The translations under genes and the position numbers were made by a program. The notes below the pieces were generated by a model. The model was given only the letters and a program-made list of their open reading frames with translations. It made no database searches and was not told the DNA's origin. Shown here one piece after another: positions 2,259 to 51,140 of a stretch of DNA of 60,670 bases (positions are counted from its first letter, which is position 1; each line of letters starts with the position of its first letter). Origin of the DNA: an uncultured Muribaculaceae bacterium (GTDB lineage Bacteria > Bacillota_I > Bacilli_A > RF39 > UBA660); assembly GCA_964369355.1 (NCBI GenBank), contig CAYJEO010000001.1:31090-91759 (forward strand), in the 5' to 3' direction.

Positions 2259-3182
2259 TTATTTTCTTAAATATTTTGATAACGTTGACATTTTATCAAT
2301 ATTTGAGTTTAATTGTTTTTCTATTAATAAAAGATTAAATTCAAACCATTTATTAAAAGATTCCTTTGTTGGATTTATAGCCATTTGATGAATTAAATTT
2401 CTGTATTCACCACGTTTATTAGTGTTATATAAAGCTTCACTAATATATACAGAAGGTAATTCTAAATTCATATTTGTTATATTTTTAGTTAATGACCATA
2501 TTTTAACATTTTCATATACTCTTGCTAATCTAGTGTTACCGTCTCTAAACATCTGTAAAGCAGCTATTAAACCATGTACAAATATTGGTTTAGAAAATAC
2601 TTCATATTCTTCATTTATATCATCATTGTTATACATATTCATTATGTACTTAGCAGCATCATTAATTTCTTTATAATCTATTGGTACATAATCAATTATT
2701 CTTTGTCCATCTTGTACTTTACCTACAAACGTTGTATTGTCAGTTCTAAAATTGGTGAAATCTTCTGTTAAATCTGCTGTTCCAAATAATAGTTTTTGAT
2801 GTGATATATCTAAATCCTTTGGAGTATATATTTGATTATTCATTTTATCTGCTATTAATTTATTTGTAGCTGTTGGCGTTCCGTATTTTAAAAATACATC
2901 AACTAATACTCCATCTACATTTTCTAAACCTTGGTTTCTTACAATTTCCTTATCTTTCAAAGTTTCTAAGAAAGGATTTAAATATTTATCTAATCGTGGC
3001 AACAATCCAATATATCTTTTATATTCATCCATTATGTATTCAGATAATTCCTTATTTTCATCTGATACTTTATAAGCATCAAATTGCTCTAGTAAAGACA
3101 TACCTGTAACTTTTATATTTTCTCTTTTTATTATCTCAGCCATTTCTTGTTCTTGTTTTATTATTTTTTCTGTTCTGCACAT
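2259..3182 (-). CDS. Fic/DOC family protein with degenerate active-site motif
   Basis: 307 aa. The Fic signature HPFx(D/E)GNGRxxR is present as QMFRDGNTRLAR (nt 2520-2555). GAGGTGA RBS before the ATG. Confidence 0.6.
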   Translation of the reverse strand: MCRTEKIIKQEQEMAEIIKRENIKVTGMSLLEQFDAYKVSDENKELSEYIMDEYKRYIGLLPRLDKYLNPFLETLKDKEIVRNQGLENVDGVLVDVFLKYGTPTATNKLIADKMNNQIYTPKDLDISHQKLLFGTADLTEDFTNFRTDNTTFVGKVQDGQRIIDYVPIDYKEINDAAKYIMNMYNNDDINEEYEVFSKPIFVHGLIAALQMFRDGNTRLARVYENVKIWSLTKNITNMNLELPSVYISEALYNTNKRGEYRNLIHQMAINPTKESFNKWFEFNLLLIEKQLNSNIDKMSTLSKYLRK

Positions 3183-3225
3183 ACTATCACCTCTTGTGCT
3201 AATTATTTTATCATTTTTAATTTTT

Positions 3226-6689: not shown

Positions 6690-8027
6690 TTATTTCTTAA
6701 ATGTTTTTATTATTTCTTTAAAGTGATTTCCTCTATCTTCAAATTTTTTATACTGATCCCAAGAGGCACATGAAGGAGATAATAATACAACATCTCCTTT
6801 ATTTGATATTTCATATGCTTTTTTTGTTGCTTGTTCTAGATTATCAAATATATAATTTTCTATATTCAATGAGTTAGCAAAGTCTTTTACTTTTTCTTTT
6901 GTTTCTCCATATCCGATTATTGCTTTTGTGTTTTTAGTATAATCTTTTAATTCATCAAAGAAATGTCCTCTATCTAGCCCACCTAGTAATAAAACAGTTG
7001 GTTCAGTAAATGCTGATAATGCTATTTTTGTAGATTCTACATTTGTCGCTTTTGAATCATTATAAAACTTAATACCACCTACTTCATCTACATATTCCAT
7101 TCTGTGTTCTACTCCACCAAAATTATTTAAATATTCTTTAATTATTTCATTTGATACATTAAATTGTTTTGCAACTGCTATTGCACACATTATGTTTTCA
7201 TAATTATGATTTCCTTTTAATTTAATATCTTGTAATTTTATTATTTCTTCTTTATTAAAATAAATTGCATCATTTTCTAAATATAAGTTATGTTTGTTTT
7301 TTGAAGAAAATAAAATTTTAGTTGATTTAATGTCTTTTGTTTGCTCTAATACATCACTATCTTCTCCATTAATTATTGCTACTTCATTTTCTGTATGATT
7401 TCTAAATATTAAGGTTTTATTATATTTGTAAAAATCATATGTCCCAAAATGATCTAAATGTACTTCACTTAGATTTGTCATTATAGCAATATCTGTTTTA
7501 AAATCTTTAGTATCATGTAATTGATGACCTGCTATTTCTAATACTAATATATCTCCTTTTTTAGAGTTACTTACTAATGAACATACTGGATATCCAATAT
7601 TACCACCTAGGTGAACAGGTAAGTTAGCATTTTTTAATATATTATAAGTTAGCGTTGTTGTAGTTGTTTTACCATTTGATCCTGTTATACCTACAATTTT
7701 AACATCCATATCTTTTAGATATTGATATGCAACTTCTACTTCATTAATTACTGGTATATTTAATTCTTTTGCTTTTAATATAGCTGGATGATCTAATTTG
7801 ATACCTGGATTTTTAACTAAATAATCATATTCTTCATTCAATAATTCTACTGGACTTTGGCCTATTACAATTTCAACACCTAAGCTAGTTAATTCTTTTA
7901 CATGTTCTTCATTTTGCTCTGATGCATCGTTTACAGTTACAACTGCACCTTTATTTGCTAGTAGTTTGGCAGCTTCATATCCACTTCTTGCCATTCCTAA
8001 TATAAACATCTTTTTATTTTTATACAT
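6690..8027 (-). CDS. murD: UDP-N-acetylmuramoyl-L-alanine--D-glutamate ligase
   Basis: Rossmann N-terminus ILGMARSG, P-loop GITGSNGKTTT, Mur ligase C-terminal domain. Start moved to MYKNKK (GAGGAGAG RBS) from the track start 8042. Confidence 0.9.
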   Translation of the reverse strand: MYKNKKMFILGMARSGYEAAKLLANKGAVVTVNDASEQNEEHVKELTSLGVEIVIGQSPVELLNEEYDYLVKNPGIKLDHPAILKAKELNIPVINEVEVAYQYLKDMDVKIVGITGSNGKTTTTTLTYNILKNANLPVHLGGNIGYPVCSLVSNSKKGDILVLEIAGHQLHDTKDFKTDIAIMTNLSEVHLDHFGTYDFYKYNKTLIFRNHTENEVAIINGEDSDVLEQTKDIKSTKILFSSKNKHNLYLENDAIYFNKEEIIKLQDIKLKGNHNYENIMCAIAVAKQFNVSNEIIKEYLNNFGGVEHRMEYVDEVGGIKFYNDSKATNVESTKIALSAFTEPTVLLLGGLDRGHFFDELKDYTKNTKAIIGYGETKEKVKDFANSLNIENYIFDNLEQATKKAYEISNKGDVVLLSPSCASWDQYKKFEDRGNHFKEIIKTFKK

Positions 8028-33436: not shown

Positions 33437-33452
33437 AAATTAAGGTGATAGT

Positions 33453-33998
33453 ATGGATAGTATGTTAATTATTTTTCTAGTTTTAATTATTTTTAGTTTT
33501 TTAGGGATATGGGCTTTATCTACTTATAATAGATTCCAAGAGTTTATTATTAGAATGAATGAAGCTGAATCTAATATAGATGCAACTTTAAGAAAAAGAT
33601 TTGACTTACTTAATAAAGCTGCTTCTATAATAAGAACAACTATTGAAGGTAAAGAAGATGCTTTAAACATTATTGAAAAAATACGTTCTAAAAAAATATC
33701 TAATTTTGATTTAGATAGACAAATATATGAAGCTATCAATGAATTTGAAGTTTATAAGTTAGAATATAAAGAACTAAAAAAAATAGATGATTTTGTTAAA
33801 ATTGATTATTCTTTACAAGAAACTGAAGCTGAAATAATTGCTTTCAGAAAATATTATAATGAAATAATTACTAGTTATAACAAAATGATTATAACTTTCC
33901 CGTCTGTAATAGTTGCTAGTTTAAAAAAATACAATGCTAAATTATATTATGATGGCAAAGATATGTCAGATGATGATATTGAAGATATGAAAGTATAA
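33453..33998 (+). CDS. lemA: LemA family protein
   Basis: N-terminal TM helix, then YNRFQEFIIRMNEAESNIDATLRKRFDLLNK, the typical LemA core. Confidence 0.8.
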   Translation: MDSMLIIFLVLIIFSFLGIWALSTYNRFQEFIIRMNEAESNIDATLRKRFDLLNKAASIIRTTIEGKEDALNIIEKIRSKKISNFDLDRQIYEAINEFEVYKLEYKELKKIDDFVKIDYSLQETEAEIIAFRKYYNEIITSYNKMIITFPSVIVASLKKYNAKLYYDGKDMSDDDIEDMKV

Positions 33999-36493: not shown

Positions 36494-37266
36494 CTAGGAT
36501 ACCCCACATACATTGTTCCTTTTGTAATTATTCCACCTATTCCAGCAGAGCCATATTTTGTTATTTCTAATATACCTTTTAAATCTATATCTGAAGTTGA
36601 CTCTGTTAAACTTAATCGTGATGCAACTATAGCGGGATCTAACGCGTGAATGTTTACTCTTTTTGGACTAGAAGCAAAGTTTGCTCCCGCTTTTAATAAT
36701 TCTTCATAGTCAGATTGGCATGCCCCTGCTATTATTATTAGTTTTTGGTGGCTACTTTCATACTTTCTTGCTTCGATAACTGAATTAACAAAATGAATAC
36801 TGTTTTTGTAAGCTGTTATATCATTTAATTCGCCCTTACTTTTATAATATGCATCATGCCCTGTTATTACTAATATCGTTGGATTCACTTCATTTAATAA
36901 AGTTTCTAAATTATTTGCTATCTCATTTTCTTTTAACACTTTACCTACTGCCCATATATTATTATTTTCATAATATTTTAAACACTTATTTAAATAATCA
37001 CTGTCACCGTCTATATGCAATATTTTACCAGGTAAGTAAAAGTAATCATCTCTATTAAATTCTTTTGCTAGTCCAATTCTTTCTTCAAATTCTTTATCTT
37101 CAATATCTTCTTTTACCAGTTGTAAATCTAATATAGGACTATCTGCTAATAATCTAATACTCATTCCTTTTAAATATACTGTTTCGTCTTCTATATTAGT
37201 AATTATAAAAACTAAATCATTGTCATATGATTTTCTTGTAACTAAATCTCCTATTTTAAAATTCAT
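36490..37266 (-). CDS. yabG: Sporulation-specific peptidase YabG
   Basis: MNFKIGDLVTRKSYDNDLVFII matches the YabG N-terminus. LHIDGD...ILVITGHDAY...IIAGACQS core. Start moved to 37266 (GGTGATAAT ATG). Confidence 0.8.
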   Translation of the reverse strand: MNFKIGDLVTRKSYDNDLVFIITNIEDETVYLKGMSIRLLADSPILDLQLVKEDIEDKEFEERIGLAKEFNRDDYFYLPGKILHIDGDSDYLNKCLKYYENNNIWAVGKVLKENEIANNLETLLNEVNPTILVITGHDAYYKSKGELNDITAYKNSIHFVNSVIEARKYESSHQKLIIIAGACQSDYEELLKAGANFASSPKRVNIHALDPAIVASRLSLTESTSDIDLKGILEITKYGSAGIGGIITKGTMYVGYPR

Positions 37267-37330
37267 ATTATCACCCATCTAATTGTATGATGGATATTTT
37301 TATATATGAAAAAAAGTAGAATTTCTTCTA

Positions 37331-42058: not shown

Positions 42059-42811
42059 TTAATCTACTGGTATTGATAAAATTGATGAATTTTCGTTTAT
42101 TCCGTTTGCATAATATTCTGGTACACTACCATTTATTAACTTAATAGATATCGGTATTTTGGAATCAATAGTTATTTTTTCTGTTAGAAATGGCATTATA
42201 ACTTGTACTGATGTTTCTACTTCTATAAATACTTCTAATAAAGCATTGTTAATTCCATATTCTTTTATTTCTGTTTTTATATTACTGATAACATTTCCTA
42301 CTAAGTTTAATCTTACTGGTATTTTAGGTCCTAAATTTGATAATAAAGAGTTATTTAAAGGTAATAATGAAGGTATATAAAAAATAACCCCATTGTTTTC
42401 ATTTTTATATTCTAAATTAGGGTCATTTTGATAACTATTTAAATTTAAAACACCATTTTCTAATTCTATTAAATTTTCGTATATATTAGTTGTAACTGAT
42501 GTTAATAACTTATTTACTATTATTGGATTAAAATCTATTGTATTTATTTCTTCATTTATATTTTTATTTATTAAAAATAAATTTTCTATATCTATTTGAT
42601 CTGTTATTTCTTTATTTATAGATAAATTTACTATTTGTGATGTTATTTTTATTATTTCTTGACTAGCATAATTATTTAAAGTTGGCATTATTTTATCATT
42701 TATGTATAAAAATGATGAATATATCCCTATAAAAACTAGGATAATTAAAATAATTATTTTATCTTTGTTAGTAATTTTTATTTTTTTATATTTCTTTATT
42801 TTTTTTCTCAT
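42059..42811 (-). CDS. yunB: Sporulation protein YunB
   Basis: N-terminal TM helix. LGPKIPVRLNLVGNV...EYGINNALLEVFIEVE...VPEYY corresponds to the conserved YunB C-terminal region. Confidence 0.7.
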   Translation of the reverse strand: MRKKIKKYKKIKITNKDKIIILIILVFIGIYSSFLYINDKIMPTLNNYASQEIIKITSQIVNLSINKEITDQIDIENLFLINKNINEEINTIDFNPIIVNKLLTSVTTNIYENLIELENGVLNLNSYQNDPNLEYKNENNGVIFYIPSLLPLNNSLLSNLGPKIPVRLNLVGNVISNIKTEIKEYGINNALLEVFIEVETSVQVIMPFLTEKITIDSKIPISIKLINGSVPEYYANGINENSSILSIPVD

Positions 42812-42832
42812 ATTTAATTATATGAAAAAAGA

Positions 42833-43366
42833 CTATATAAATATATAATCTTTTTTTTCTTCTTGAATTTCTTCTAGGGTGATTATTTTATTTTGTTCTA
42901 ATGAGGATTTAACATCTATTAGTCTTTGATTAGTTGAACCTCTAAATTTAGTATTATAACTTAGTTTATCTAGTTCGAATTTACCATCGATTAAAACATC
43001 AATATTATTTAATAAATCTAAAAAATATTTGTTTTTAGAATTTATTATTTGTTCATAAGTATATCCTGTATAACACCAAACATTTAAACCTATATCTTTA
43101 ACAGATGCAGCTATATATGCGCATTGTTTTGCTTGCATAAATGGTTCTCCACCTGATAGTGTTATTCCATCATGATATTTTAAGTTTTTTATTTGTTTAA
43201 TTAATAAATCAACGTCAATATCAAATCCATCATTTGTATCATGTGTTGCAGGATTTTGACAACCTTTACAATTATGAGAACATCCTTGAGTCCATACAAC
43301 TGCTCTTATGCCTATTCCATCAACTATACTTTCTTCTTGTAAGTTAGCAGCTAATCTTATTTGCAT
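42833..43366 (-). CDS. nrdG: Anaerobic ribonucleoside-triphosphate reductase activating protein
   Basis: Radical SAM cluster GCSHNCKGCQNP, then GITLSGGEP. 177 aa. Confidence 0.9.
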   Translation of the reverse strand: MQIRLAANLQEESIVDGIGIRAVVWTQGCSHNCKGCQNPATHDTNDGFDIDVDLLIKQIKNLKYHDGITLSGGEPFMQAKQCAYIAASVKDIGLNVWCYTGYTYEQIINSKNKYFLDLLNNIDVLIDGKFELDKLSYNTKFRGSTNQRLIDVKSSLEQNKIITLEEIQEEKKDYIFI

Positions 43367-43506
43367 TCGTGTTTTACTCTGTCTTTTTCTTCTGCTTGTT
43401 TAGCGTCATTAAATCTTTCTTTAGTTCCTACTAAATATCCAGTAATTCGTCTGATTCTTTCAAATCCTACTCCTTCTCCTTCTTTTTTTACTACTCTTTT
43501 TTCCAT
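43357..43506 (-). CDS. Stand-alone NrdD glycyl-radical tail (49 aa)
   Basis: Not in the ORF track (<60 aa). Sequence MEKRVVKKEGEGVGFERIRRITGYLVGTKERFNDAKQAEEKDRVKHECK carries the class III RNR C-terminal R(V/I)xGYL...N.(G/A)K..E...RVKH signature. Own RBS GGTGATAAT ATG. Its stop overlaps the nrdG start. Confidence 0.65.
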   Translation of the reverse strand: MEKRVVKKEGEGVGFERIRRITGYLVGTKERFNDAKQAEEKDRVKHECK

Positions 43507-43514
43507 ATTATCAC

Positions 43515-45755
43515 CTATAATCTTTCTATTCCTTCAAAAGCTTTTCTACCACACCCTGGGCATACATCTCCAATTATTCCAACATATCCACATACTGGAT
43601 CTCTATCTACTGGGTGGTTTATTGCTCCGTATCCTATTTTTGCATCATGCATTATTCTTATTATTTTTTCAAATGCTTCTAGATTAGATGATGTATCTCC
43701 ATCTAATTCTATATATGAAATGTGACCAGCATTTGTAAGTGCATGATATGGGCCTTCTAGATGTAATTTATTTGGCACTGATATTTCATAATGTACTGGT
43801 ACATGAAATGAGTTTGTATAGTAATTTCTATCTGTTATACCATTTAATTTACCATATATTGCTTGATCTATTTTTAAAAATCTACCTGATAGTCCTTCTG
43901 CTGGTGTTGCAATTAGTGAGAAATTTAATTTATATTTAGTTGCATATTCATCAGCTTTTTGTCTCATGAATCCAATAATTTCAAGACCTAATTCTTGGGC
44001 TTCTTTTGTTTCTCCGTGATGTTTACCTATTAATGCTTTTAAACATTCTGCTAAACCTATAAATCCAAATGTTAAAGTACCATGTTTTAATACTTTTCTT
44101 AATTTGTCTGTAGATTTTAACTTTTCTGAATCCATCCATACTCCTTGTCCCATTAAAAATGGGAAATTATATACATGTGCATTTCCTTGAATTTCAAATC
44201 GTTCTAATAATTGGTCTTTAACTAAATCTAGTAATTCTTCTAATTCTTTAAAGAAACCTTCTAAATCTGTTTTTTCATTTATAGCATTACCATATTTTAG
44301 TCCAAGTCTAGGTAAATTAATTGATGTAAATGATAAATTACCTCTACCTGGTGTTATTGCTTTATTTTCATCCACTACATTTGATAAAACTCTTGTTCTA
44401 CAACCCATATAAGATACTTCAGTATTATAGTCTCCTTCTTTATAATATTGTAAGTTATAAGGAGAATCTATAAATGAGAAATTAGGGAATAATCTTTTAG
44501 CTGATACTTTACATGATAATTTAAATAAATCATAATTTATATCACCTTCATTAAAATTTATTCCTTCTTTTACTTTAAATATCGATATAGGGAATATTGG
44601 TGTTTCATTTTTACCTAGCCCTGAATCTGCTGCTAGTAAATAATTTTTAACAACCATTCTTCCTTCTTCTGATGTATCTGTTCCAAAGTTAATTGATGAA
44701 AATGGAACTTGTGCTCCTGCTCTTGAATGCATTGTATTTAAATTATGTATAAATGCTTCCATTGCTTGATATGTAATTCTATCTGTTTTTTGTAAGGCTT
44801 TTTCATATGATGTTTTAAATATTTTTTCTATTTGTTCTGATTTTTCTGTAAATTTATTAAATATTTCTAAATCAAATTTAATTGATTTTAATTTATTTAT
44901 TTCTTTTGCTATATCGTCCATATTAACTATATTTAATAATGATGAAAAGTCTAGAAAATCATATATTGCTTGTTTAAATTGTTTTTTAAAAGTAACAAGT
45001 ACTCCCGGTGCTAGATAATAATCAAATGCTGGTATACTTTGTCCCCCATGTTGATCATTTTGATTTGATTGAATTGCTATTGCTGCTAATGCTGAATAAC
45101 TCATAATATCTTTTGGTTGTCTTAAATGTCCATGTCCTGTTGAAAAACCATTTGTAAATAATTTTTTTAAATCTATTTGGCAACATGTTACAGTTTTCAT
45201 TGGCATAAAGTCCATGTCATGAATATGTATATCACCATTATCATGTGCCTCAGCAAATTTTTCTTTCATCATATATGCCTTAGCAAATTCTTTTGATAAA
45301 CTACTTCCATATTGAAGCATAGTTCCCATTGCAGTATCACCATCTACATTGGCATTTTCTCTTTTTGAATCTTCTTCTTCAGCTGATTTTAATGTAAGAC
45401 TTTCTAAAGATTTTAAAAATTTATGTTGTTTGTGTTCTCCGAATATATATTGTCTAGCATTACTTCTTTTTTCTCTATATAAAGAAAATGATTCATAAGC
45501 ATCTTTATATCCTAGTTCATTTAATTCATTTTCAATCAAATCTTGAATTTGTTCGATTTTAATTTTGTCTACGTTTAAGTTTTTTATTTTTTCTAAAACA
45601 GTAGTATATACTTTATTAACATCTTCTTCATTATATTTTAATTCGTCTTCATCTATTTTAATAGAATCCATACCTTTTTTAATGGCTAATGCGATTTTAG
45701 CACCATTGAAATCTACTTTTTTTCCATTTCTTTTAATTACTTTTAAATTTTCCAT
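43515..45755 (-). CDS. nrdD: Anaerobic ribonucleoside-triphosphate reductase large chain, ending just after the Zn ribbon (no glycyl-radical motif)
   Basis: N-terminal ATP-cone (VIKRNGKKVDFNGAKIALAI), class III RNR core, C-terminal ...VDRDPVCGYVGIIGDVCPGCGRKAFEGIERL*. GTG 45770 lies within the GGAGGT RBS, so ATG 45755 is used. Confidence 0.88.
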   Translation of the reverse strand: MENLKVIKRNGKKVDFNGAKIALAIKKGMDSIKIDEDELKYNEEDVNKVYTTVLEKIKNLNVDKIKIEQIQDLIENELNELGYKDAYESFSLYREKRSNARQYIFGEHKQHKFLKSLESLTLKSAEEEDSKRENANVDGDTAMGTMLQYGSSLSKEFAKAYMMKEKFAEAHDNGDIHIHDMDFMPMKTVTCCQIDLKKLFTNGFSTGHGHLRQPKDIMSYSALAAIAIQSNQNDQHGGQSIPAFDYYLAPGVLVTFKKQFKQAIYDFLDFSSLLNIVNMDDIAKEINKLKSIKFDLEIFNKFTEKSEQIEKIFKTSYEKALQKTDRITYQAMEAFIHNLNTMHSRAGAQVPFSSINFGTDTSEEGRMVVKNYLLAADSGLGKNETPIFPISIFKVKEGINFNEGDINYDLFKLSCKVSAKRLFPNFSFIDSPYNLQYYKEGDYNTEVSYMGCRTRVLSNVVDENKAITPGRGNLSFTSINLPRLGLKYGNAINEKTDLEGFFKELEELLDLVKDQLLERFEIQGNAHVYNFPFLMGQGVWMDSEKLKSTDKLRKVLKHGTLTFGFIGLAECLKALIGKHHGETKEAQELGLEIIGFMRQKADEYATKYKLNFSLIATPAEGLSGRFLKIDQAIYGKLNGITDRNYYTNSFHVPVHYEISVPNKLHLEGPYHALTNAGHISYIELDGDTSSNLEAFEKIIRIMHDAKIGYGAINHPVDRDPVCGYVGIIGDVCPGCGRKAFEGIERL

Positions 45756-45782
45756 ACATCTGACCTCCACTACTATGATTTC

Positions 45783-45812
45783 ATTATAGTCACAAAATTA
45801 AGTTAAAGTCAA
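45783..45812 (-). promoter_or_regulatory. Putative nrdD promoter
   Basis: Minus strand TTGACT-18 nt-TATAAT, about 25 nt upstream of the RBS. Confidence 0.45.
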
Positions 45813-45936
45813 TATACATTTTGTTTGCTTTTAATATGTGTTTTTTTGACATTTATAATAAAATATTACCTTTTTCTCTTTATTTATAATAAAATTTGTT
45901 TCTTTTTTATTTTGAAAAAATTTGTTCGTTTTATTA

Positions 45937-45960
45937 AAAAAAGAATATTTTCATATTCTT
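45937..45960 (-). terminator. Terminator copy A (24-nt repeat) after the pilin-like gene
   Basis: AAAAAAGAATATTTTCATATTCTT. Minus-strand hairpin AAGAATAT-gaaa-ATATTCTT followed by 7 U (the repeat covers 6; plus-strand 45936 adds one). Identical 24 nt at 47338-47361. Confidence 0.7.
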
Positions 45961-47284
45961 ATTTAACTACTACATATGGATCGTTGTATAAACCTGTTCC
46001 TGTCAATGTTACATCTGCTTTTAAGGATATAACAGGTCTTACATAATATGACTTCCATGTGTATGTGGCCCAAATTTGTTCATTTGAAGTTGTTGCTAGA
46101 CCGTAAGAAGATCCCCAACCTATTCCTTGTGTTGTTATTGTCCAATTCCAAAGTCCATTATATAAATAATTACTGCTAATAAACGGCCAGCTATCACCTT
46201 CTTGCCTGTGATAACTACCAGACAAAACTGCTTCATGAAAGTCATATGTACCAACTGGATAAGTTAATAATCCATTTCCATACTCAGATTCTTCTACTGT
46301 ATAACTTGATTCTTTATTACATTCAAGATTATAACCTTTTGAATATATTTCATAAAATTTTTGGTGATCATTAGTAGAATAGGTCCATCCTTGATTAAGT
46401 GATGTTCCTGAGGTTTGCCCACTGTCCGAGCAAAACACTGAGTCTGCTATATACTCTTGACTATCAATTATATTTGTAGCATACCAATTATCTAACACTA
46501 TTTTTAAGTTTGAAGATGTTATAGTACCATCAACATTTTCATAAGCATATTTAAGAATGTTTGAATTTGTAGAATTGGGATTGTAACTATGAGTACCTAT
46601 TGTTGTATCAACTCCTATTTTCCCTGTTTGTTCTGCTTCTGTTGGTGGTGTAGTTCCTGCATATATTATGCGTATTGTTCCATCACCATTTATTCTTATA
46701 ATATTCCAATAATAATCATCAAATTTTAACCAATTATCATTAACTGCACCTCGATAGTAATAAGATTCACCTAAACTATCTGTAGTAACATGAATACCTG
46801 TATCTATCTCTACTACAGAGGGTGCTGTTATTTTGTTTTTTGCGTTTATTACATCCATTCCCTCGCTTGACAATATGTATTCGGCAGTATTAAAATTCGG
46901 TACACATTCTTCTTGTGTTTTAATTGTATTATCTTCATTTATTTCTTTATCTTCAAAGTTTTTTGTATAGCAAACATTATCCAAATACACTGCTATATAT
47001 ATTTGCCCATTGTCTTTTATTTTTAAAATCCCATTATCTGGTTTTTCTGATGTTGTTTTTATTTCACTATATAAATTAGTTTCACCATCAAAAGTAATTC
47101 CTTCTAAATGCGATGTTGCATAATATGTTTCAGCTCCATCTAGTATAAATTTTACTTCTGATAAGTTTGCAGACTTTTGTGCATCATCTATTATACCTAA
47201 AATAATAGGTGTTGCTATTGCCATTATTATCACTAATATTACTAATACAGCTAGTAACTCAATTAATGTGAATCCCTTTTTCAT
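45959..47284 (-). CDS. Type IV pilin-like protein (prepilin N-terminal cleavage/methylation domain) with large C-terminal domain
   Basis: MKKG|FTLIELLAVLVILVIIMAIA class III leader. Downstream YYYRGAVNDNWLKFDDYYWNIIRINGDGTIRIIYAG, LDNWY, YVRPVISLK. AGGAGAG RBS. Confidence 0.85.
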   Translation of the reverse strand: MKKGFTLIELLAVLVILVIIMAIATPIILGIIDDAQKSANLSEVKFILDGAETYYATSHLEGITFDGETNLYSEIKTTSEKPDNGILKIKDNGQIYIAVYLDNVCYTKNFEDKEINEDNTIKTQEECVPNFNTAEYILSSEGMDVINAKNKITAPSVVEIDTGIHVTTDSLGESYYYRGAVNDNWLKFDDYYWNIIRINGDGTIRIIYAGTTPPTEAEQTGKIGVDTTIGTHSYNPNSTNSNILKYAYENVDGTITSSNLKIVLDNWYATNIIDSQEYIADSVFCSDSGQTSGTSLNQGWTYSTNDHQKFYEIYSKGYNLECNKESSYTVEESEYGNGLLTYPVGTYDFHEAVLSGSYHRQEGDSWPFISSNYLYNGLWNWTITTQGIGWGSSYGLATTSNEQIWATYTWKSYYVRPVISLKADVTLTGTGLYNDPYVVVK

Positions 47285-48219: not shown

Positions 48220-48246
48220 AAAAAGATATTAGTTATCTAATATCTC
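48218..48246. terminator. Bidirectional terminator
   Basis: AGATATTAG-ttat-CTAATATCT hairpin (48224-48245) between convergent genes. Confidence 0.6.
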
Positions 48247-48927
48247 TTGTAATTGTTGTACTTTTTCTATATCCATATCTAATACGTTTTTTAAAGGATA
48301 TTCAAGTCCTAATTTTTCATATTTTTCTATAGCCATTGAATGATATGGTAATAATTGTACTTTTTCTATGTTGTTTATATTTTTTATATATTCTTTAAAT
48401 CTTATAATATAATCTTCTGTATCATTTATACCAGGAATTATAACATGTCTTATCCATAGTTTTTTATTTAGTTTTTGACAAACATTTAAAAAATTATCAA
48501 ATTCGTCTTTTTTATGTTTCGCTATTTCAAAAAATTCTTTATCAGTTATTCCTTTTATATCTAATAATACTAAATCTGTATATTTTAATATTTCTTCATA
48601 ATTACCTACACCTATTCCACTTGTATCTAAACAAGTATGAATATTGCAAGTTTTACAAAGTTTTAACATTTCTAATAAGAAATCTTTTTGTAATAAAGGT
48701 TCTCCTCCTGAAAAAGTAACTCCGCCATTATCATTAAAATAATTTTTATATTTTAAAATTTTTCTTATTAATTCATCTGAAGTCATTTCCGTTCCATCAT
48801 TTATATTAAATGTTTCTGGATTATGACAGTATATACATCTATTTTTGCAACCTTGCATAAAAACAACAAAACGAATTCCAGGTCCATCTACTAGACCCAT
48901 TGTATCTATTGAACTAATTTTTCCCAT
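48229..48927 (-). CDS. pflA: Pyruvate formate-lyase activating enzyme
   Basis: GPGIRFVVFMQGCKNRCIYCHNP radical-SAM motif, TFSGGEP. Start overlaps the pflB stop. Confidence 0.92.
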   Translation of the reverse strand: MGKISSIDTMGLVDGPGIRFVVFMQGCKNRCIYCHNPETFNINDGTEMTSDELIRKILKYKNYFNDNGGVTFSGGEPLLQKDFLLEMLKLCKTCNIHTCLDTSGIGVGNYEEILKYTDLVLLDIKGITDKEFFEIAKHKKDEFDNFLNVCQKLNKKLWIRHVIIPGINDTEDYIIRFKEYIKNINNIEKVQLLPYHSMAIEKYEKLGLEYPLKNVLDMDIEKVQQLQEILDN

Positions 48928-51140
48928 TAGATTTTTTCGTGGAATGTTCTTTCAATTACTTCTAATTGTTGTTCTTTGCTTAATCTAACGAAGTTAACTG
49001 CATATCCTGATACTCTTATTGTTAAACTTGGATATGCATCTGGATTGTTCATAGCATCTATTAGAGTTTCTCTATTAAATACATTTACATTAATATGTTG
49101 TGCACCTTGTTTAAAGTATCCATCTAATATATTAACTAAGTTTTGTTTTCTAGATATTTCATCTTGCCCTAAAGCTTGTGGTGTTATTGAGAACGTATTT
49201 GATACACCATCTTGACAAATATCTTTATAAGGTATTTTAGCAACACTATTTAATGAAGCTAATGCTCCACAACAATCTCTTCCATGCATTGGATTTGCTC
49301 CTGGTGCAAATGGAATTGATGCTTCTCTACCATCTGGTGTAGCTCCTGTTTTTTTACCGTATACTACATTTGATGTAATTGTTAACATTGATAATGTATG
49401 TTTAGCATCTTTATATAATTCATGTTGTTTTAATGCATTAATGAAATATTCTACTACTTCCTTTGCTATTAAATCTACTTCATCTAAGTCGTTACCATAT
49501 TTAGGGAAATCCCCTTCGATATTATAACTAATTGCTAATCCATCTTCGTTTCTAACTGGTGTTACTTTGGCATGTTTAATTGCTGATAAACTATCTGCTA
49601 CTATTGATATACCTGCTCCGCCAAATGCCATTAATTTTTCAACATTTGTATCATGTAATGCTAATTGTGCCGATTCATATGCATATTTATCGTGCATGTA
49701 ATGAATTATGTTCATTGCATCTACATATATTTTTGCTACCTTATCTAATACTTTAAAGTAAGCTTTTTTAACTGTTTCGTAATCTAACACTTCATCGTTT
49801 ATTTTTTCTACATCATCTAATACTAGTTTAAATGTTTTTTCATCTACTCCACCATTTATTGAATAAAGTAGTGCTTTAACTAAATTACATCTTGCTCCGA
49901 AAAATTGCATTTGTTTACCTAAAGTCATTGCCGATACACAACAAGCAATTCCATAATCAGATCCATATATTGGTCTCATTTCTTCATCGTTTTCATATTG
50001 TAATGCATCTGTTTCAATTGACATTTTAGCACAATATTCTTTGAAATTTTTTGGTAACTTATCTGACCATAATACTGTCATATTTGGTTCCGGTGCTGGA
50101 CCTAAATTAGTTAATGTATGTAAAAATCTAAATGATGTTTTTGTTACTAAACTATTTTTATCATTTAACATACCAGCAATTGATTCAGTTACCCAAGTTG
50201 GATCTCCAGCAAATAATTCATTATAGTCTGGAGTTCTTAAATGTCTCATTAATCTTAATTTAATTACAAATTGATCGATTAATTCTTGTGCTTCTATTTC
50301 TGTTAATCTACCTTCTTCAATATCTTTTTCAATATAAATATCTAAGAATGTTGATACTCTACCTAAAGATGTTGCCGCTCCATTGTTTTCTTTTGTTCCT
50401 GCTAAGTACGCAAAGTATGTCCATTGTACTGCTTCTTTAGCATTTTTAGCTGGCACTGATAAATCAGCCCCATAAGTTTTAGCCATGTTTTTAATTTTTA
50501 CTAAAGCTTTTATTTGTTCATTTACTTCTTCTCTTAATTGAATAGTTTTATCATTAGTAATGTTTTCTAATTTTAATAAATCTTTTTGCTTTTCGTTTAT
50601 TAAAATATCAATACCATATAACGCTACTCTTCTGTAGTCTCCAATAATTCTTCCTCTACCATAAGCATCTGGAAGTCCTGTTAATAATCCATTACTTCTA
50701 GCTTTTTTAATATCTGTAGTATAAGCATCAAATACACCATCATTATGTGTTTTAATTGTTTCATGAAACGGTTTTAATAATTCACTATTCACTTCATATC
50801 CATAAGCTTCTACTGATTTTTCAGCCATTCTTATTCCACCAAATGGATTTACAATTCTTTTTAGTGGTGCATCTGTTTGAAGACCTACTATTACTTCATT
50901 ATCTTTATCTATATATCCAGGATTAAAATTATCTATTCCTGAAATTATATTAGTTTCTATATCTAATACACCTTTTTGTACTTCTTCTTTTAGTAATTGT
51001 TGACATTTATTCCATATTGCATTTGTTTTATCTGTTGCATTTTGTAAAAAGTCTTCATTACCTGTATATTCAGTGTAGTTTTCTTCTATGAAGTTTGCTA
51101 CATCTATATTTTGTCTCCAAAATTTACCTTTAAAATTCAT
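48927..51140 (-). CDS. pflB: Formate C-acetyltransferase (pyruvate formate-lyase)
   Basis: 737 aa. Active-site CC (IACCVSAM). Glycyl radical motif TIRVSGYAV near the C-terminus. Confidence 0.95.

Follow-up and report, generated by a model that had tools for sequence, protein, structure and literature searches.

Strict anaerobes cannot do without class III ribonucleotide reductase (RNR), NrdD, which is the textbook example of a glycyl-radical enzyme made of a single chain. The question raised by the nrdD locus of an uncultured Muribaculaceae bacterium, which lies within a window of 60,670 nt (the whole stretch of DNA that was analysed), is whether the glycine that bears the radical may instead be held on a polypeptide of its own. 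On the minus strand of this window the gene order is nrdD-L, nrdD-S and nrdG, encoding respectively a large catalytic chain, a chain of 49 residues with the glycyl-radical motif, and the activase. The reading that we favour, and that we regard as highly probable, is that these genes make up a genuine two-gene class III RNR, in which the large (L) and small (S) chains would be obligate partners, the radical being placed on S by NrdG and S completing the active site of L in trans. The features that bear this reading can be observed directly, namely the gene layout, its conservation, the small gene's own initiation signals, purifying selection and the homology of each piece to the corresponding part of a single-chain NrdD. 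If it is correct, a large and diverse group of gut and rumen bacteria has its radical glycine on a distinct peptide some 50 residues long, an arrangement that would alter how the enzyme is assembled, activated and repaired.

The nrdD-L gene (43515..45755, minus strand) encodes 746 amino acids, comprising an ATP-cone, a barrel and a Zn ribbon, and is without a glycyl-radical motif. The open reading frame (ORF) program lists a GTG at 45770 as its start, but translation more probably begins at the ATG at 45755, with a GGAGGT 7 nt upstream and a product of 746 residues, as in database entry P0121. The C-terminus of the chain reads ...CPGCGRKAFEGIERL and is followed by a TAG at 43517-43515, such that the protein ends ten residues past the CPGCG of the Zn ribbon, with no RxxGY. 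After a gap of 8 nt, and in frame +2 with respect to the large ORF, an ATG at 43506 opens nrdD-S (43357..43506, minus strand), the product of which is MEKRVVKKEGEGVGFERIRRITGYLVGTKERFNDAKQAEEKDRVKHECK and the stop of which is a TAA at 43359-43357. The Shine–Dalgarno (SD) sequence of this small ORF, AGGTGAT (43510..43516, minus strand), is complementary to the 3′ end of 16S rRNA and overlaps the TAG stop of nrdD-L. Likewise, the ATG of nrdG (42833..43366, minus strand; 177 aa) lies at 43366, within the last codons of nrdD-S, giving a 10-nt overlap (ATGCAAATAA). An earlier sequence-only reading of this DNA had remarked upon the early end of the large ORF, the 49-aa ORF in a different frame and the overlap of the latter with nrdG, and in each of these respects it is borne out.

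Each of the two chains matches its own part of a canonical NrdD. The large chain covers positions 3-717 of the 746 positions of NF005497 with 1008 bits (cut-off 764), scores 573 bits against TIGR02487 (cut-off 326), and in Pfam contains an ATP-cone together with positions 1-538 of the 562 of NRDD (PF13597; E 1e-187). The remainder of both models is found in the small ORF, which is no chance reading frame and matches positions 533-562 of Pfam NRDD (E 1e-08, over the gathering score) and positions 711-744 of NF005497 (E 3.5e-12), in agreement with the sequence-only assignment of this ORF to the C-terminal glycyl-radical signature of class III RNRs. The nrdG product, in turn, matches TIGR02491, a family of radical S-adenosylmethionine activases, with 155.5 bits (cut-off 126.1). 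In structural terms, the large chain aligns with the NrdD of P. copri (8P23) from end to end, and residues 15-46 of the small chain align with positions 707-738 of the same structure. An AlphaFold2 model of an in-frame read-through of a relative (L063) has a core with a mean predicted local distance difference test (pLDDT) score of 78.8, and its comparisons with 8P23 and 8P2S give template modelling (TM) scores of 0.78-0.88.

The catalytic residues are divided between the chains in a corresponding manner. From an alignment to the phage T4 enzyme (1H78), the counterparts of T4 Cys79, Cys290 and Asn311 are all kept in the large chain, within TCCQIDL (190-196), YMGCRTR (449-455) and GRGNLSF (470-476). 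The thiyl Cys452, Cys191/192, Asn473, the barrel and the allosteric ATP-cone are thus predicted to belong to the large chain, and the radical Gly23 (codon GGA at 43440-43438) and the terminal helix to the small one. Indeed, an RxxGY motif on the same polypeptide is absent from the large chain, and RRITGY sits on the separate 49-aa ORF. The predicted Zn ribbon of the large chain, D719-P-V-C722 ... C732-P-G-C735-G736 (43548..43601, minus strand), aligns with the CLDC...CPKC of 8P23 and retains three cysteines of the motif, with an aspartate in place of the first Cys of the P. copri enzyme. This Asp719 (43599-43601) is a trait of the clade (DRDPVCGY…CPGCG) that is found in fused and split members alike.

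How far this layout extends beyond the window is evident from a comparison of nrdD loci in relatives, fused or split, which had been set as a test beforehand. Among the 120 best large-chain homologues, with 77-80% identity across residues 400-751, 114 are of the split type, ending soon after the Zn ribbon in conserved tails and containing no Gly motif, and only six are fused. At greater distances both forms are common: of 150 sequences that each represent a cluster at 50% identity, 52 have the Gly motif, 60 stop past the Zn ribbon and 38 are truncated. A search with the 49-mer itself returned 6358 protein clusters of 27-86 aa. These homologues share a conserved core, GEGVGFERIRRITGYLVGTxxRFNxAKxAExxDRVKH, preceded by variable N-termini that are rich in Lys and Glu and all begin with Met. 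The contexts of three small homologues show the same order of large nrdD, small gene and nrdG, and a homologue of 54 aa (P0107) recurs, identical, in 809 indexed collection blocks, four contexts of which, from separate samples, all have the three-gene layout. In a genome scan that used one genome per species and the small-ORF alignment as query, 81 of 89 loci (the window and the context loci included) have the small ORF and eight are fused; the large chain lies directly upstream in 79 and nrdG directly downstream in 70. In dozens of species the three-gene unit is the common form, and the layout is met with on many contigs that are unrelated to one another. Moreover, the small ORF is under strong purifying selection, the ratio of nonsynonymous to synonymous substitution rates (dN/dS) of its 37-codon core having a median of 0.07 over 638 pairs, with values of 0.07-0.15 at dS 0.7-1.2 for the window against its relatives.

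A quick maximum-likelihood tree was built from 115 large chains, each trimmed past the Zn knuckle. Split sequences are scattered among fused ones on it, with 15 changes of state, of which at least 12 are forced by well-supported branches, as compared with about 23 when the labels are shuffled (one distant row, P0390, is mislabelled by the motif pattern, making the count about one lower). The window falls in a well-supported clade of 40 split and four fused members, made up of uncultured Bacilli and Mycoplasmatota-like gut bacteria.

The small gene is also found on its own in viruses. Of 80 viral loci, 36 have it as a solitary gene, neither a large chain nor nrdG lying within 5 kb; a further 37 loci are fused and two are split operons. 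The stand-alone copies on phage-like contigs are among viral loci L089-L163, and at one of them (L089) the small terminase subunit, a PAPS reductase and an exonuclease lie alongside. Such copies would fit a protein that acts in trans. Among cultured phages, Eggerthella phage EL753P1 (L169; OP172808.1, record 6964-7170) contains a split-type nrdD ending in …CPQCHRKEFEAVPEEYRDMVDEIRKSGMR, followed by a 102-aa ORF and then, further downstream, by a small glycyl-radical gene; in the deposited record 5 extra nt (TGACC, duplicated locally) interrupt this last gene immediately ahead of T-G-Y.

These solitary phage genes are what could be said for the alternative that the small protein is an optional spare part in the manner of GrcA, a fused NrdD encoded elsewhere doing the work and the large chain of this locus being inactive or having some other role. 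Of the alternatives to an obligate pair this is the one that survives best, although we consider it unlikely. The large chain has all of its catalytic residues and scores as a full equivalog, and it shares an operon with nrdG and the small gene, in a three-gene unit that is common in dozens of species. In this regard, the 60-kb window contains no other nrdD-like sequence and no RNR of another class.

The point at which the two chains part company has a structure of its own, which returns us to the two-gene enzyme. FEGIERL, residues 740-746 at the end of the large chain (43518..43538, minus strand), and FERIRRI, residues 15-21 of the small chain (nt 43464-43444), both align to positions 707-713 of 8P23, IDKLQRI, the strand that precedes T-G-Y. 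In other words, the large chain is cut off at the point of entry into the radical loop, and the strand leading up to that point is present again in the small chain. About seven positions of the NF005497 model are accordingly matched by both chains, which accounts for the 'echo' of AFEGIERL in GFERIRRI that the sequence-only reading had taken as a hint of a duplication at the split point. That hint can now be extended, since the duplicated strand (GEGVxxERI) is a family-wide feature: the consensus of large chains past CPxCG is R-[RHK]-E-G-E-[GA]-[VI]-x-x-E-[RK]-[LIV], that of small chains before RRITGY is K-K-V-G-E-G-V-G-F-E-R-I, and the two copies share a mean of 4.1 of 9 identical residues in register, as against 0.05-1.6 with the register shifted. 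As a whole, the split junction is some 65-90 nt longer than the same region in fused relatives, accommodating the tail, the stop, the SD sequence, the ATG and a Lys-rich N-terminus. Recombination between the strand repeats could provide a simple route between the split and fused states.

In most relatives the large chain runs past the repeated strand into a conserved tail, of a Bacilli type (...EGVSVDKVNDFKKNSCC, often with a terminal Cys pair) or of a Clostridia type (...EEIPPERVAELKKMYPEMPAFQGIE). Examples from L013, L029, L043, L047, L088 and P0142-P0240 include …NSCCN, …NLNCCK and …CDC for the Bacilli type and …ELKKMYPEMPAFQGIE for the Clostridia type. The C-terminal Cys pair of such split-type tails brings to mind the tails that serve re-reduction in RNRs of classes I and II; the tail of the window protein is without these features.

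As for its translation, the small ORF of the window has the same initiation region as other genes of this genome. The 12-mer GGTGATARTATG, comprising the SD sequence GGTGAT, a 3-nt spacer and ATG, occurs five times in the window as against 0.01 expected (342-353, 3180-3191, 33444-33455, 37264-37275 and 43504-43515), always at the start of an ORF. The other four are the starts of yabG (Peptidase_U57), lemA, a Fic-domain gene and an ORF resembling a phosphotransferase-system EIIB protein (PTS-EIIB-like), so that the ribosome-binding form which the sequence-only reading had noted at yabG, and in near-identical form at lemA and the Fic gene, is indeed shared by all three. The 12-mer constitutes a stereotyped initiation region in a very AT-rich genome. 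At 68 of 69 junctions (67 genomic and two from viral contigs) the start codon of the small ORF is ATG, and at 68 an SD-like match of at least 4 nt precedes it at proper spacing; the small ORF lies in frame +2, 0 or +1 with respect to the large ORF in 30, 21 and 18 cases, respectively, at a gap of 1-216 nt, which in the window is unusually short, the large ORF ending in TAA, TAG or TGA. Downstream, the stop of the small ORF and the start of nrdG overlap or abut in most loci (the commonest offset is -8, that of the window -10), which points to the translation of the activase being coupled to that of the radical carrier.

From these features a mechanism may be proposed. The nrdD-L product would supply the ATP-cone, the barrel with thiyl Cys452 and the Zn ribbon, stopping before the glycyl-radical loop, and the nrdD-S product, translated independently from its own SD sequence and ATG, would bring the loop with the radical site (RRITG23YL) together with the helix at the C-terminus. 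NrdG would take a hydrogen from Gly23 of the 49-residue chain. This chain would occupy the barrel of the large one in the way that a single-chain NrdD houses its own C-terminal domain, and the radical would then pass in trans to Cys452, starting nucleotide reduction.

Several points weigh against such a two-gene enzyme. Both the trans-activation and the docking of the two chains are argued from homology. In the L063 model the tail, the linker, the N-terminus of the small chain and the glycyl loop all have pLDDT values below 50, and the radical domain of a naturally fused control (P0125) also falls below about 50, so that at this alignment depth the low values carry no information on docking. 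Public sequencing runs yielded only ruminant and gut metagenomes in which 6-9% of the sampled words matched, these being the conserved parts of relatives, with a depth of 0 over 43515-43535 and the organism itself in none. Finally, the large-chain tail of the window is the shortest seen and is without the conserved extension of its relatives, for which reason the nrdD copy in the window may be somewhat degenerate.

The last two of these observations also give what support there is to the proposal that the split is a sequencing or assembly indel, or a recent pseudogene, with the 49-aa ORF being the displaced C-terminus of a single-chain nrdD. A one-base indel, however, would not give back a canonical protein, because the junction is longer than in fused relatives by the 65-90 nt given above and the strand is present twice. 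The same layout is found in most close relatives and in independent assemblies, the SD form matches that of other genes of the genome, and the dN/dS values of 0.07-0.15 are those of a gene under constraint. An assembly artefact is very unlikely in the light of this comparative evidence from relatives, contexts and genome loci, and we give the proposal as a whole a very low probability.

An equally low probability attaches to programmed recoding, by which a -1 frameshift, or a read-through of the stop in relatives where the ORFs are in frame, would fuse the two products. The position of the small ORF of the window in the -1 (+2) frame, only 8 nt away, and the presence in some relatives of an in-frame small ORF behind a single stop, are what one would look for in such a case. 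Nevertheless, the junctions fall in all three frames, with gaps of up to 216 nt that contain several stops, and given this spread no frameshift or read-through mechanism fits. Nor is there any shared slippery site, an ATG with an SD sequence being nearly universal instead, and the fused product would have to hold the duplicated strand along with an insert of 20-70 residues. On the frame and gap statistics of the 69 junctions, programmed frameshifting and read-through were therefore rejected.

Post-translational joining of the chains, for example by a split-intein-like ligation, is brought to mind by the inteins of many NrdD homologues (900-1778 aa, with 2-4 matched stretches) but has a negligible probability, and a split intein was rejected on the sizes of the pieces, only 5-25 variable Lys-rich residues preceding the small-chain core and ten residues forming the large-chain tail of the window, which leaves no space for intein halves, and splice-junction residues not being conserved. 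The long homologues in question are to be found among NrdD representatives P0243-P0321, many of which have 2-4 separate matched stretches, interrupted close to residues 450 and 623 of the query; the pattern is as would be expected for inteins, and several of these proteins are split-type at the C-terminus as well.

Set beside known systems, the two-gene NrdD is closest to single-chain NrdD with NrdG, as in E. coli, phage T4 (1H78/1HK8) and P. copri (8P23), being of the same family, made of the same parts and having nrdG adjacent. It differs in that the radical loop and terminal helix form a separate 49-residue polypeptide with its own start, and in that the strand before the loop is doubled, at the end of the large chain and in the small chain. 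Divided reductases are known from other classes. The class I nrdA of Aeromonas phage Aeh1 is an example of genes-in-pieces, in which a mobile homing endonuclease gene lying within the barrel splits the gene and the enzyme still assembles in active form. The present locus, unlike Aeh1, contains no inserted element, and its break sets the radical domain apart. The split class II RNR of Pseudomonas aeruginosa, NrdJa/NrdJb, is described (Crona et al. 2015, as cited in PMC9669993) as having neighbouring genes for a chain with the barrel and for one with the C-terminal part, as is the case here; it differs in belonging to the B12 class, which uses no glycyl radical, and in that NrdJb provides a Zn-finger and a Cys tail for re-reduction rather than a radical cofactor.

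The other obvious comparison is with the spare-part proteins of pyruvate formate-lyase, GrcA/YfiD of E. coli and Y06I of phage T4, which are also small free proteins with a radical glycine. The likeness extends to charging by the enzyme's own activase (which would be NrdG here), to a variable or disordered N-terminus and to the existence of phage-encoded versions. In YfiD, moreover, one strand overlaps a strand that the large protein retains (PMC13450708), as it does here. The parallel with GrcA/YfiD drawn by the sequence-only reading is consequently apt as an analogy, the radical glycine residing in both cases on a small protein of its own and a strand being doubled, but it does not extend to descent: the small ORF matches NRDD only and has no match to the pyruvate formate-lyase-type Gly_radical domain, PF01228, for which reason it is not a GrcA homologue, and membership of the GrcA family was rejected. 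There is a difference of function too, since GrcA backs up a complete PflB, whereas here the small chain would be obligatory, the adjacent large chain being without a radical domain. A 2026 review names the formate-lyases as the only glycyl-radical enzymes with identified spare-part proteins, and treats the existence of others as still to be determined. Our search of the literature for a split NrdD, the coverage of which did not extend to subscription-only papers, found no paper describing one, in agreement with the sequence-only reading, which knew of no trans-acting mini-subunit for this enzyme.

Beyond the two-gene enzyme itself lies a further possibility, connected with the sensitivity of the radical. 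Glycyl-radical proteins are cleaved by oxygen at the glycine, as has been established for both pyruvate formate-lyase and NrdD, so damage of this kind would likely be confined to the 5.8-kDa chain, which could be replaced without remaking the large one. It is conceivable, although we hold this only tentatively and with rather more doubt than belief, that the small chain is an exchangeable radical cartridge, the first system of the spare-part type for a glycyl-radical enzyme besides pyruvate formate-lyase. In such a scheme free small chains would acquire the radical through NrdG and, once charged, insert into the large chain; oxygen would destroy nothing but the small chain, for which a new one would be substituted. 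Phages with the small gene alone would supply cartridges of their own, such that the large chain of the host could keep making deoxynucleoside triphosphates during infection. The duplicated strand, for its part, would let lineages switch between fused and split forms by recombination, which would account for there being at least 12 changes of state on the tree.

Whether or not the cartridge proposal holds, the layout bears on the question of whether glycyl-radical enzymes besides pyruvate formate-lyase use a detachable radical piece, and it offers a natural system in which to put that question. The copies borne by phages hint at an auxiliary gene of a new type. At a practical level, a radical carrier of 5.8 kDa would make a convenient substrate for studies of activase recognition. 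Annotation pipelines, meanwhile, call both of the pieces 'anaerobic ribonucleoside-triphosphate reductase', or else call the small one hypothetical.

Some further observations concern the expression and surroundings of the locus. In two rumen metatranscriptomes (runs X1 and X2), RNA contigs that belong to relatives, and not to this organism, span 43370-43514 at 85-95% identity, and some of them run upstream into Lys-rich small-chain N-termini (the loose end being at 43480). Since these contigs cover the small-gene region, split-type small genes appear to be transcribed in rumen communities. A promoter-like site, TTGACT-18 nt-TATAAT (45783..45812, minus strand), lies upstream of nrdD; a consensus match only, it is the top sigma-70-type match in 42600-46000, with 11 of 12 positions, and the same scan gave no site of comparable quality between nrdD and the small ORF. 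Inspection of 45783-45880 by eye for NrdR boxes upstream of nrdD revealed AT-rich half-palindromes, none of them box-like enough to call. Some 5 kb upstream of nrdD, at 48229-51140 on the minus strand, are PflB (737 aa) and its activase PflA (232 aa). This PflB is undivided, being one chain that contains a PF01228 Gly_radical domain, the only match to PF01228 in the window; between the PflB and the RNR of this genome, the split is thus seen only in the RNR.

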